49,309 nt of DNA from an uncultured archaeon. GTDB lineage: Archaea > Iainarchaeota > Iainarchaeia > Iainarchaeales > Iainarchaeaceae. The translations under genes were made by a program, and so were the position numbers. The stretch is from the NCBI GenBank assembly GCA_902386385.1, contig CABMIU010000048.1, forward strand, positions 1-49,309, given 5' to 3'. Positions 46,031-49,309 of the stretch are shown here, one piece after another. Below the pieces are notes generated by a model that saw only the letters and a list, made by a program, of their open reading frames with translations, did no database searches and had not been told where the DNA came from. Within the stretch, counting starts at the first letter, position 1. Every line of letters starts with the position of its first letter.

Positions 46031-47215
46031 TCAGAGTGAGTTGTGTGGTTTGGGCCTTGGCAAGGCATCCCGGAAGTCGTGATTTGCCTGTGCCGAAAGT
46101 TGCGCCCGGCCATTTTTTTCTTCGGCCATTTCGTGTATTTGCCTGTTTATCGTGTCTAATGCAATTCCTTTCAGGAACTTGGATACGCTGCCGTGGGCCT
46201 GCGGGTCATACATGCCTAATGCTTCCCATGCCCTCAACACCGCATCATGGGTCACATCCTGCCAGTCCCTTCCAGAATACCTGTCCCTTACAAATTGGCT
46301 GAGCGTCGCATAATTCCTTTCAATCGCTGCCATTTTCTGCTCTTCCCTGAGCGCGTTTGTAAGCCTGAGCGTTCTGTAATCAATGCCATACCTGCGGAAC
46401 CACAGGTATTCCCTTTTGGCTCTCCTCGCGAGCAGGGTTACAAAGATATGTTCGCCGGCAATTTCCGGTAAAAACAGGGCGAGCCTTTGCAGCACTGTCT
46501 TGCGGACAAATTTCCTGAAGTCTTCCGCCTCTGCCGCAGACAGGTGGTTGTTTGTAATCACTTCCTCTACCGCGCTCCTGTTGCGCCTGAATATTTCCGC
46601 CCTTTTTGCCAGCGGAAGCTCCGGCTTGAGGTCAAGCTGATATTTTTCCCTTATCCTATGCAGCATTGAAGGGCTCAGCCCGTATGAGTGATTCAGACCG
46701 TAGCTAATTTCAGGCAGCCTCGCCTTGCTTTTATTGTTTACATAGGAAACATTGAAAGACTTGCGTGGTGTTCCCAGAACATGCTGTGATATCTGTGCAT
46801 TGGTCATTGCAGTGGTTTCTAGCAAATCAATGATTTGCTGGCGCTGCTCCCCTGTAATGTATTGCCAGCCTCTCCTGATTCGCGGTATTTCCCCAGTTTC
46901 TTCCCTGCTGCGGATAAACGTGTAAACTTGGCCTATTGGGAGCTTTGCAAGCCGCGCTATTTCCGGGATTGACGCGTTCGGGTTACTGCCGCATAATTCT
47001 ATTATGTGGTTGTGCTCGTCGTGTAGTCTTTTTCTTTCCTCCTGGCCGTATCTCCCCTTCGTAAGATTTCTGATATTGTATTTTGTATAAGTAATATTAG
47101 CTCCCGTAGCTATTGCCACTTCCGATGGGGTGGCTTGAGGGTGATTTTGGAAAAATATTTTGATTAATTCCTGTTTAGGCAGTTTCCACTTAGGGGTTTT
47201 CCTTTGCGCTGGCAT
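46031..47215 (-). CDS. Multi-HTH protein with C-terminal sigma-70 region-2-like domain(s)
   Basis: HTH-like segments (TPSEVAIATG, SIPEIARLAKL, MTNAQISQHV); WQDVTHDAVLRAWEALGMYDP...FLKGIA. Confidence 0.7.
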   Translation of the reverse strand: MPAQRKTPKWKLPKQELIKIFFQNHPQATPSEVAIATGANITYTKYNIRNLTKGRYGQEERKRLHDEHNHIIELCGSNPNASIPEIARLAKLPIGQVYTFIRSREETGEIPRIRRGWQYITGEQRQQIIDLLETTAMTNAQISQHVLGTPRKSFNVSYVNNKSKARLPEISYGLNHSYGLSPSMLHRIREKYQLDLKPELPLAKRAEIFRRNRSAVEEVITNNHLSAAEAEDFRKFVRKTVLQRLALFLPEIAGEHIFVTLLARRAKREYLWFRRYGIDYRTLRLTNALREEQKMAAIERNYATLSQFVRDRYSGRDWQDVTHDAVLRAWEALGMYDPQAHGSVSKFLKGIALDTINRQIHEMAEEKNGRAQLSAQANHDFRDALPRPKPHNSL

Positions 47216-47479
47216 CGTATTATTAACAAAATTGGGCTTTATAATTCTGCTTTTCAGCTAAGCCTTGTTCAAAAATCCCCAAATGACGGGCCTATTGATG
47301 GCGGTCCAGGCCAAATGGCCATGCCCTTTCGGAAGCTCCGTCCCCAGAAAAATACTTGTTAAACAAGCCCGACAAACAGTATAAATAATTGGTCGAAGAA
47401 TACCTTATTTATGTTTTCCGCAAAAGCCGTGTTCAAGATTGGTGTAATTCCATTTAAAGCTGTTTCGCGAACTTTGAGG

Positions 47480-48304
47480 ATGCGTTCAGTTCCGCGATTG
47501 TCCCGCAGGAGAAGATCCAGTTTTTTGTCAAAAAACGCTTTTTTTATTGAACTTTGGCGCACCGTGACTCCGGCTGCAAGAATAGGAAAAAAGGAATTTC
47601 TTGTAGTTGAAGCTTTTAATGATTATGTGGTTGCAATCGATGACATCCTTGACCAATTGGTTCATCCCGACCCCCAGAAAGAGTATTTGGCATACAAGAT
47701 GAATCCTGATGCAAGAAAAAGTGTCGGAGATTTTGTCAGGGCGGTTAAGGGGACCGTACTGACAAAAGAAGAGAAAAGGCAATTGTTCAAAGTTGTGGGC
47801 GATTACCGGAGAAAAGCTTTCCATGTATTGCAAGAATTCTACGCCGATACTCCGCGCCTTGATAAAATCATTAGAATGAAGGAGGAAACTTCAGGAGAAT
47901 GGGGGTGTGCAGCAGTAAAATTGCTCGATATATTGGGGCAGGTGCCGCGAGAAAATAGGCGGTCGGTGGAAGAAGCATTCGCAAATTCATTCATGGCAAC
48001 ACAAATAGCTGATGATTTATTTGACCTCGTGGAAGATACTTCGAGAAAAACGCCCAGCATAGCCGTTGGAATATTCATGGGCCATCCAGACGAGCTGCGG
48101 AATGCACTTTCAATGGAAAAACCGTCCATGCACTTATTCAAAAAACTCTGTCCAAAATCAATTGCCAAAATAATGGATTTATACCGGGGGTATTTGGGCA
48201 AAATTCCGCTATCTGACAACCTTCAGATAATAAGGATTTTTCCCCGGTTATTCATCAATTTTTTGTCGCTTACAAAGCGCAGGCAAAGACTTGCACCGCA
48301 ATAA
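47480..48304 (+). CDS. Class I isoprenoid-synthase/polyprenyl-synthetase-fold protein
   Basis: Two Asp-rich motifs, IDDILD and QIADDLFD, with an intervening KEETS. Start uncertain (47411 or 47480). Confidence 0.7.
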   Translation: MRSVPRLSRRRRSSFLSKNAFFIELWRTVTPAARIGKKEFLVVEAFNDYVVAIDDILDQLVHPDPQKEYLAYKMNPDARKSVGDFVRAVKGTVLTKEEKRQLFKVVGDYRRKAFHVLQEFYADTPRLDKIIRMKEETSGEWGCAAVKLLDILGQVPRENRRSVEEAFANSFMATQIADDLFDLVEDTSRKTPSIAVGIFMGHPDELRNALSMEKPSMHLFKKLCPKSIAKIMDLYRGYLGKIPLSDNLQIIRIFPRLFINFLSLTKRRQRLAPQ

Positions 48305-48398
48305 GGACAAACCGCAAAAAATTCAGCAACCCATCTATGTTGAAATGCCGCTTATCTGAACATTTTTTACCACTATTACCATAAAAAACTTTTGGGGA

Positions 48399-48560
48399 GT
48401 GCCTCCAACAAAACCGTCTATCCGCAGTCTCGTTGAGCTGCACTAGGAACATTTGGTTTGGAGGAGAGCATGCGCTAATCGAAAAACGCGGGTTAAAACC
48501 CGCATGGGTTGCAGAGCGTCTCTGCTCTCTCACCCCCCAAATCCTTGTTACAGTTCCTAA
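48399..48560 (-). ncRNA. Bridge/seek RNA-like guide RNA of the IS
   Basis: Long stem with a symmetric internal loop whose strands GCAACCCAT and TTTTTCGAT match the element flanks; a second stem-loop follows. Confidence 0.7.
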
Positions 48561-49130
48561 CAAGCATCAATGAATTCTTCCCTCCTCTTGAGCATGAAAA
48601 ACATTGCAGTCAGCATTTTCCTCGCAACAGCAATGAGTGCTTTTTTCTTCCCAATCTTCCGCATCTTTTTCAAAAAAAACTTCCTGAACTTCCCCTTTTT
48701 CTTCACGGCCACCCGAGCGCATTGAGTTAAAGCCCAGCGCATTTCCTTCATTCCCTGCTTGCTAATACTGCCGAGAATTGTTTTCTCTCCAGATTGGTAA
48801 ATGCGAGGAGCCAAGCAGGTATAGGAAACAAGCTGCTCGCTAGAGCCAAACGCTCAACCCCGTCAACAAACGAAGAAATGAGCAAGCCGGAAAAATAGCT
48901 CACGCCAGGCATGCTAATCAAGAGCATCGCATCAGGATTTCCAAGAGCTTTTTCTCAATCTGCTTGTTAACCTGATAAAGCATCCGATTGAGATAATCAA
49001 TGTGCTCAAGGCATTGCTCCAAACCTTCTAGGGTGGTAGGGTAACGCTCCCTCAAAACAGGCCTCGCGTTACCATCAATCCTGTGAACCTGAACACTTTC
49101 CTTATGCGAATCAATCGCTGCATATTCCAT
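48557..49130 (-). pseudogene. IS110 transposase pseudogene (internal deletion + frameshifts)
   Basis: AAIDSHK (DEDD start), SMPGVS, APRIYQSG (catalytic Ser motif), SKQG...RWAL, ALIAVARK; most of the RuvC domain is missing. Confidence 0.9.
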
Positions 49131-49187
49131 GACATACCGCCTCCAAACATATTATGCCGAGGCGGCATTTCAAACATGTCATCAAAA

Positions 49188-49309
49188 AGGACCCCTCGCC
49201 ATTTATGGCGAGGTTTTTGCTCGGGGCCCTTTCAACGGTTTGACAAATGAAATATTGGCGTATTATTCAGTTTTGTCAAACCGTTGCCGTTGACGGCTTT
49301 TTATGAGAC
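49188..49309. repeat. 122-bp direct repeat, copy 2
   Basis: Identical to 1-122. Confidence 0.95.

Follow-up and report, generated by a model that had tools for sequence, protein, structure and literature searches.

How did the insertion sequence (IS) near the end of this stretch of archaeal DNA come to lie where it lies, and can the address of its insertion site still be read from the element itself? We refer to the whole stretch, 49,309 nucleotides (nt) of contig CABMIU010000048.1 from an uncultured archaeon (assembly GCA_902386385.1), as the window; all positions are window coordinates, G000 designates the genome of the window, the other G codes designate the genomes of relatives, and L codes designate loci. 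With a probability of roughly 0.85, we regard the minus-strand segment 48334-49182 as a dead, internally deleted, IS1111-like copy of an IS110-family element with a site-specifying downstream RNA, residing in a small archaeal genome. The archaeal nature of the host follows from the window, as it encodes both PolD subunits and the termination factor FttA as well as a Hel308-like helicase carrying an archaeal domain 4. An initial annotation, made from the letters of the sequence, had already proposed an IS1111-type element of the IS110 family with a downstream RNA loop matching its insertion site, and our data on inverted repeats, layout, guide order and covariation uphold this proposal; the element's ends and the restored target site given there were off by three bases.

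The boundaries of the element can be read from three uninterrupted copies of its target in the same genome (G000 contig C16 at about 22455, and contig C32 at about 13958 and about 133). All three empty sites read CAGCAACCCAAAAAGG, without ATC, and in these repeat copies the upstream sequence corresponds to the intact target, with CAGCAACCC directly followed by AAAAAGGACCCC. They are also the only zero-mismatch matches to the 14-mer target in the whole assembly, out of 21 sites with at most two mismatches. The occupied site carries 851 nt more than the empty ones; because the empty sites lack ATC, this insert has to be understood as the 849-nt element plus one copy of a 2-nt core. The sole ambiguity between flank and insert is the dinucleotide CA on the plus strand (TG in the orientation of the element), present at 48332-48333 and again at 49183-49184. 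A search for an orthologous empty locus with the left flank (47700-48333) as the query gave no match in four genomes of the same genus, and our evidence for the empty site consequently stems from paralogous repeat copies within the same genome. At all nine left junctions seen in the family, GAT precedes GACATG (GATATG in locus L024) regardless of the outer flank; since this GAT is constant whatever the flank, its AT fits as part of the element. The right flanks of the relatives part ways after CATAGA or CATAGC. In three sequencing runs of one sample, just two 151-nt contigs, both of X1, fit (48840-48990 and 49083-49233), and the latter crosses the left junction without differences; it may derive from the assembly's own sample. 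Among the listed runs that contain the stretch, none is recorded as RNA.

Past the transposase stop at 48557, on its 3' side in the minus strand, we found the hairpin and both loop strands exactly where, and with the sequence with which, they had been reported before: the strands GCAACCCAT (48512-48504) and TTTTTCGAT (48486-48478) flank a GCGGG/CCCGC hairpin and are enclosed by a GAGAGCA..CGCT / AGCG..TGCTCTC stem. The symmetric 11x11 internal loop ascribed to this structure has to be modified, as the arm is present in the minimum-free-energy fold of 48330-48560 with two extra pairs that reduce the loop to 9x9. In the published naming (PMC11208160), guides are called left when they pair with the bottom strand and right when they pair with the top strand, the core being included in either kind; of the two loop strands, the 5' one is accordingly the putative right-target guide and the 3' one the putative left-target guide. 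The first loop strand is identical to plus-strand 48326-48334, as the initial annotation had stated with a 9/9 match to the left flank, and a repeat finder independently lists 48323-48334 against 48504-48515 (12 nt, 92% complementary). Against the true target, the right-target guide scores 8 of 8 (48512-48505 against 48333-48326), and the T that follows it, at 48504, faces the last base of the element, A 48334; by analogy, this T resembles the handshake guide described for IS621 (PMC11208158). The second loop strand agrees with CTTTTTGAT (minus strand, 49189-49181) at 7/9 positions, again as claimed. Its guide portion matches the true site at 5/7 positions (TTTTTCG against CTTTTTG), and the AT directly behind it (48479-48478) equals the first two bases of the element (49182-49181). 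The two target-loop guides overlap on the 2-nt core. On the plus strand they predict GCAACCC, then A (5' strand) or G (3' strand), then AAAAA. The real site reads GCAACCCAAAAAG; in the preferred target GCAACCCATCGAAAAA put forward earlier, both the core and the ends were misplaced.

Four relatives (G022:C7, G022:C23, G017:C60 and a metagenome contig) retain the RNA stems and have a different 5' loop strand. We scored five different 8-nt guides against seven flanks that follow a right end, allowing offsets of 0-4; the flanks L010 and L012, from right ends that lack a loop of their own, were paired with the guide of the closest right end. The guides match the right flanks of their own family at 8, 7, 7, 8, 8, 8 and 8 of 8 positions, in comparison with a mean of 3.3 and a maximum of 6 for the 28 non-own pairs. 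The covariation of guide and target across homologs that the initial annotation had envisaged as a check was thus found. It is by this covariation in the relatives, and not by the window copy alone, that the match between loop and flank exceeds chance. The left-target guide can be checked in three copies, with 7/7 matches in G116:C155 (L024) and 5/7 matches each in the window and in G022:C7. L042, a paralogous and unoccupied repeat in G022, has the sequence ACTTTCG spanning the insertion point and agrees with the G022:C7 guide at 6/7 positions; its sequence explains the C that had initially been taken as a mismatch. L042 shares merely about 80 nt with the occupied flanks and represents a paralogue, not an allele.

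The second loop relates to the element's own end. Here, the base following ATAG is A in the window copy, in L008 (G022:C7), in L020 (the metagenome contig) and in L059 (G116:C105), all of which end with CATAGA; it is C in L002 (G022:C23) and L004 (G017:C60), which end with CATAGC. The putative left-donor guide is therefore concordant with the end of the element in six of six copies. In G116, the core positions of both the target loop and the donor loop read AG, and AG is also found at the left junction (L024) and at the right junction (L059) in this genome. These matches argue for a second loop that serves as the donor-binding loop, as predicted by Durrant et al. for the right ends of IS1111 elements, and they independently fix the last base of the element. 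The best candidate for a right-donor guide in the 5' strand of this loop was a discontinuous fit of 6/9; we rejected it since the differences of G116 in this strand do not follow the differences in the G116 left end.

Folding lends itself to the same two-armed picture. A consensus fold of five relatives comprises 52 pairs, with an outer stem closing two arms, and 95.7% of the cells are paired in it, as opposed to 35-51% with slid partners. There are five compensatory pairs in which both sides have changed, a number that none of 500 shuffles reaches, and G-U pairs in five columns are compatible with the transposase-sense strand only. For the single 231-nt fold, z amounts to -2.26, with an equal or better fold in 6 of 200 shuffles. 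As a separate observation, the repeat finder reports that the second arm of the RNA is, on its 5' side (48443-48464), 73% complementary over 22 nt to 49140-49161, the left-end region with GGAGG before the transposase start; this pairing may be an antisense contact or a product of chance.

Several points weigh against our interpretation and should be set out together. A right-donor guide complementing the left end was not found by eye, with both strands and both ends inspected and wobble pairs and a bulge allowed, and the A/C change in the left-donor guide may go back to a single evolutionary event. The left-target guide of the window matches its own site at only 5/7 positions, both sequences are T-rich so that this match taken alone is weak, and the guide's core-binding C lies opposite a T of the site. 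The right-target guide occurs in two registers one base apart, one in the window copy, L008 and L010 and the other in L020, L002 and L004; in the latter three it is shifted one base onward relative to the window copy and G022:C7/C53. The guides of the main group read CG at the core, yet all eight left junctions seen read TG (the right junctions read TG in two cases and CG in five), and the flank of G022:C7 carries an extra CG. The two registers, the core discrepancies and the extra CG may reflect tolerance at the first core position, or the resolution of a heteroduplex after exchange between unlike cores; partial tolerance at the first core position is reported for IS621 (PMC11208160). With regard to the RNA, only five to six sequences from four genomes and one metagenome contig are at hand, and the same five sequences had yielded the structure that was tested, so that the statistics lean its way. 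Rfam 15, searched over 47000-49309 at E-values up to 1, gave no match on the RNA and two sub-threshold matches, both in the flanking repeat; as Rfam 15 has no matching family, the assignment of this RNA draws on analogy and covariation.

The gene that accompanies the RNA has decayed. It is frameshifted and traceable only through three reading frames, and about 410 nt are deleted near 49017-49023, a position taken from BLAST segments; a global MAFFT alignment of the window copy with L008 misplaced the large gap and was not used for this purpose. Accordingly, the window copy measures 849 nt, whereas its intact relative G022:C7 (L008) measures 1259 nt and carries an apparently intact open frame of 337 amino acids (aa). 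The N-terminal fragment begins MEYAAIDSHKES. Profile positions 40-196 find no match in the window element, and the deletion has removed three of the four invariant acidic columns (E52, D89 and D92 of family alignment A2), whose catalytic role is deduced by analogy from D11/E60/D102/D105 of IS621 (PMC11208158). What remains of the N-terminal RuvC-like DEDD domain (PF01548) are profile positions 1-39, and the 70-aa N-terminal fragment has no Pfam match. The C-terminal domain PF02371 with the G--P----SG motif is present; the relatives' profile consensus at this motif reads AGLAPRI.QSGEK, and the G of its GL is a C in the window copy. A search of a large protein collection with the C-terminal fragment gave 43 candidates, 14 of them at E <= 0.001; of these 14, thirteen (245-337 aa, 69-87% identity to this fragment) carry both PF01548 and PF02371. 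The relatives P0001 and P0011 reach 226 and 243 bits, respectively, with the NCBIfam model NF033542 ('IS110 family RNA-guided transposase'), whose cut-off is 140 bits. The lineage belongs to the IS110 family, with the window copy as a remnant.

This element is present once in the assembly (1.09 Mb, 63 contigs, 84% complete). The intact copies in the genome that the initial annotation had hoped for were not recovered: all three profile matches in G000 lie within the window element, and the 84%-complete assembly holds no intact relative of the transposase. Of the archaeal programmable recombinase system proposed there, the archaeal host stands, as attested by PolD, FttA and the Hel308-like helicase; a working system in this genome does not, in view of the deleted and frameshifted gene and the missing intact relative. 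Because about 410 nt of the gene are gone, the remainder is frameshifted and no intact relative is found in the assembly, the window copy is dead, a fossil or at best a non-autonomous element.

Downstream RNA loops that specify the insertion site have been published as seekRNA and bridge RNA (PMC11187229, PMC11208160), and 93% of IS1111 elements are predicted to carry a bridge RNA in their right end (Durrant et al., 2024; PMC11208160). Three features of layout bear on the placement of our element within this framework. Its subterminal inverted repeats are 12 nt long and 100% complementary, at 6 and 9 nt from the termini, within the 7-17 bp given for IS1111 elements (PMC11208160). The downstream non-coding region spans 223 nt (48556-48334) as compared with 52 nt upstream (49182-49131), a layout shared by G022:C7. 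In the RNA, the match to the top strand comes 5' of that to the bottom strand, the order described for IS1111 members and the reverse of that of the IS110 type (Siddiquee et al.; PMC11187229). The GL-P----SG motif likewise belongs to the published description of IS1111 (PMC11187229, PMC11208160).

The IS1111 elements for which seekRNAs have been described (ISEc11, ISPa11, ISKpn4 and ISPst6; PMC11187229) share with our element the subterminal inverted repeats, the long downstream non-coding region, a target within repeated sequence, and close relatives that have been redirected naturally by changes in segments of the RNA. Unlike them, our element belongs to an archaeal host with a genome of about 1.1 Mb, the window copy is dead and known from sequence alone, and the transposases of its relatives (328-337 aa) are distant from named IS elements (36-40% identity to haloarchaeal ones). 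A second loop that tracks the end of the element is visible here, whereas a short RNA of 82 nt was sufficient in the work described in PMC11187229. With the bridge RNA of IS621 (PMC11208160, PMC11208158), our predicted RNA has in common the two loops, left guides that pair with the bottom strand and right guides that pair with the top strand, a 2-nt core read by both guides, and a base beside the right-target guide that faces the last base of the donor. It deviates from the IS621 arrangement, as described in these papers, in its position downstream rather than upstream of the gene, in the reversed order of the guides in the loop, in a core that reads TG, CG or AG rather than CT, in a left-guide core C that faces T at several junctions, and in the right-donor guide, which we did not recognise. 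At the protein level, similarity to the structurally solved IS621 and ISCro4 proteins is confined to the C-terminal half (E about 1e-14). Haloarchaeal IS110-family genes, including those of the ISHvo10 family, are the closest named relatives found and are archaeal as well, with 36-40% identity over 97-99% of the protein. These elements differ from ours in that they reside on megaplasmids of halophilic Euryarchaeota, and ISHvo10 has long non-coding regions on both sides (PMC11187229); the comparison was made here at the protein level.

Other readings of the locus can be weighed on this basis. The initial annotation had placed the core at CATC or AT, with both loop strands ending on the AT core and with CAGCAACCCATCAAAAAGG as the restored site. 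CATC is indeed found at both junctions (48332-48335 and 49180-49183), both loop strands end with AT, and two of the six distinct right flanks (those of the window copy and of L020) begin with AT. The other four begin with AC or CC, the three empty copies in the same genome are devoid of ATC, the constant GAT at 9/9 left junctions draws AT into the element, and the donor guide treats the first base of the supposed core as the end of the element. This version is hence very unlikely to be correct; the core is the 2-nt CA of the plus strand, and the final T of the first loop strand faces the element's last base at 48334. The case carries a caution, as flank matches alone put the core three bases off and only the empty sites of the same genome corrected it. 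We give practically no credence to the notion that the hairpin is a mere terminator or a protein-binding site and that its match to the flank arose by chance. The modest advantage of the 231-nt fold over shuffled sequences and the T-rich, weak match on the left side would be in keeping with it, but five independent guide variants match their own flanks at the same loop columns, the stems show compensatory changes, and the second loop tracks both the end of the element and its core.

Two further readings, each improbable in our estimation, concern the status and the affiliation of the element. The window copy could still be mobile as a non-autonomous element, mobilisable in trans by a full-length transposase. 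Both termini, 12/12 positions of the inverted repeats and all RNA stems are intact, and the RNA region is 89% identical to that of G022:C7 as compared with 77-78% for larger matches that include the gene; the genome is, moreover, only 84% complete, repeats often remain unassembled, and gene-less pieces consisting of a right end plus RNA occur in G017 (L004) and G116 (L059). Against such mobility speak the single copy in the assembly, the missing intact transposase and the three perfect empty targets that are still unused. The element might, alternatively, fall into the IS110 group proper or into an archaeal branch of its own, and the IS1111-like layout would then have arisen by convergence. 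Our grouping was made by layout and motif; among named elements, the ISHvo10 family comes closest, at 36% identity, ISHvo10 has been termed 'more diverged' and has long non-coding regions on both sides (PMC11187229), and with 328-337 aa the relatives lie at the lower edge of the 330-350 aa given for IS1111 transposases (PMC11187229). The inverted repeats, the downstream RNA, the guide order and the GL-P----SG motif nevertheless fit IS1111 as described (PMC11187229, PMC11208160), at variance with this assignment. We consequently retain the reading of a dead, IS1111-like copy.

The following model is built in analogy to the seekRNAs of ISEc11 and ISPa11 and the bridge RNA of IS621. As in the relatives, a structured RNA of about 150 nt with two arms would be encoded between the transposase stop and the right end. 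The 5' strand of its first arm would pair with the element-sense strand of the core and the right half of the target, and the 3' strand, which reads in the same sense as the left half and the core, would bind the opposite strand. The second arm would carry at least the left-donor guide, which reads the last five bases of the element plus the core. An intact recombinase together with this RNA would then recombine the junction of the circular element with the site CCTTTTTGGGTTGC, which sits at the 5' edge of a repeat present several times in the genome. The sequences themselves show the anatomy, the true empty site, the covariation of guides and flanks and the decay of the gene; production of the RNA, its binding to the recombinase and the chemistry of the exchange are assumed here by analogy. 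The coordinates of all features are compiled in Table 1.

Table 1. Features of the IS1111-like relic and its surroundings (window coordinates; a dot marks features without strand).
Feature	Position	Strand	Remarks
Insertion-sequence relic, 849 nt	48334..49182	-	Begins ATGACATG and ends CATAGA in element orientation
Core dinucleotide, right-junction copy	48332..48333	-	TG in element sense, CA on the plus strand; occupied versus three empty sites
Core dinucleotide, left-junction copy	49183..49184	-	TG in element sense; empty-site comparison
Right half of target	48326..48331	-	GGTTGC in element orientation; would pair with 5' loop strand of the RNA; empty copies known
Left half of target	49185..49189	-	CTTTT in element orientation; from sequence and empty sites
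Right subterminal inverted repeat	48340..48351	.	6 nt from right terminus; 12 nt, 100% complementary to 49162-49173
Left subterminal inverted repeat	49162..49173	.	9 nt from left terminus; pairs with 48340-48351
Predicted seekRNA/bridge RNA body	48391..48541	-	Outer stem (48541-48531 with 48401-48391) closes two arms; followed by T-run 48389-48384
Putative right-target guide, 5' strand of target loop	48505..48512	-	GCAACCCA; complementary to element-sense (top) strand of core and right half-site
Putative left-target guide, 3' strand of target loop	48480..48486	-	TTTTTCG; sense of left half-site plus core (CTTTTTG)
5' strand of second loop, expected right-donor guide	48443..48451	-	No clean complement to the element's left end
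Putative left-donor guide, second loop	48415..48421	-	ATAGACG; sense of the element's last five bases plus core
C-terminal transposase fragment, 85 aa	48557..48814	-	Pfam PF02371, E 9.7e-10; PRIYQSGEK motif
Middle transposase fragment, different frame	48748..48927	-	Three-frame translation; profile positions 197-302 matched, 5 in-frame stops
N-terminal transposase fragment	48918..49130	-	Family-profile residues 1-39 fused directly to the coiled-coil part
Structured multi-copy repeat	49184..49309	+	5' edge is the target; 51-54-nt palindromic insert at about 49233-49286 in the window copy

The repeat into which the element is inserted merits a description of its own. It is structured and intergenic, measures about 110-126 nt and contains several hairpins. 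Copies are found at both ends of the window contig (49184-49309 and 1-127), and further ones are located internally at G000:C16:22446-22581 and C32:13850-13964 and at contig ends at C32:1-136 and C35:1-151; because the repeat sits at contig ends, the assembly breaks at it. Rfam, searched with two of its copies, gave no match. The palindromic insert of about 51-54 nt also occurs at 46-99, and the copies on C16 and on C32 (13850-13964) are without it. Its arms contain ACGGTTTGA, which resembles the arms of the palindromic repeat targeted by a related element in G022 (L042).

Members of the family have met various fates. L004 (G017:C60:~1090-1310) and L059 (G116:C105:23175-23321) retain only the right end together with all or part of the RNA region, and no transposase gene lies in their vicinity; the RNA end seems to be what relics of the family keep. 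In L002 (G022:C23), a different mobile element truncates the copy on the 5' side; the end of that element's product resembles an IS3-type integrase core. As seen by eye, a more divergent subfamily (L025, L026, L028 and L031) has a different subterminal repeat, ATGAAAACCCC, and the same CATAGA-plus-TG right junction, and an RNA segment of its member L026 repeats ATAGATGC. L031 (G031:C18, about 1439-1870) looks like a mini-element of about 420 nt. Next to the element in the window lies an open reading frame (ORF) of 394 aa (46031-47215, minus strand) with only weak matches, below the Pfam cut-offs, to helix-turn-helix and sigma-70 region 2; the neighbouring 297-aa ORF (47411-48304) has no Pfam match, and the three 394-aa ORFs in the window are mutually unrelated.

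A scan of one genome per species for relatives of the element returned six loci, four from close relatives and two representing distant bacterial matches (27-29% identity); the close-relative records are titled Candidatus Iainarchaeum archaeon in three cases and archaeon in one. The transposase profile is matched by 10 of the 196 genomes of the window's own order (E <= 1e-10), and the RNA region is matched as DNA in 4 of the 215 genomes of its class. Archaeal IS110-family elements such as ISHvo10 are on record (PMC11187229), as are 662 archaeal recombinases (bioRxiv 10.1101/2024.06.21.599552). Among the literature on IS1111 bridge RNAs in archaea and on IS110 in DPANN archaea, we found no paper with a guide-target analysis in DPANN archaea; IS1111 donor loops or members from archaea may already figure in Extended Data Fig. 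10c and Supplementary Table 5 of Durrant et al. and in Supplementary Figs 2 and 6-9 of Siddiquee et al.

The specification of an insertion site by an RNA is an already published mechanism, and the family described here is an archaeal member of this known class; the gain lies in breadth and detail, not in principle. It is conceivable, though doubtful at present, that Iainarchaeum-type DPANN archaea harbour an IS1111-like lineage, with a recombinase of about 329 aa and an RNA of about 150 nt, whose rules differ from both published models: an NG core would, at its first position, tolerate a guide C opposite a target T, the right-target guide would operate in two registers, the donor loop would read the right end only with long subterminal repeats defining the left end, and pieces made up of RNA plus right end would persist after loss of the gene. 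What the locus offers in any case is an IS1111-type insertion site that can be read from the element's own RNA loop in an uncultured archaeal lineage. The five redirected guides with their sites form a natural series, and the G022:C7 copy is testable as a small RNA-guided recombinase.

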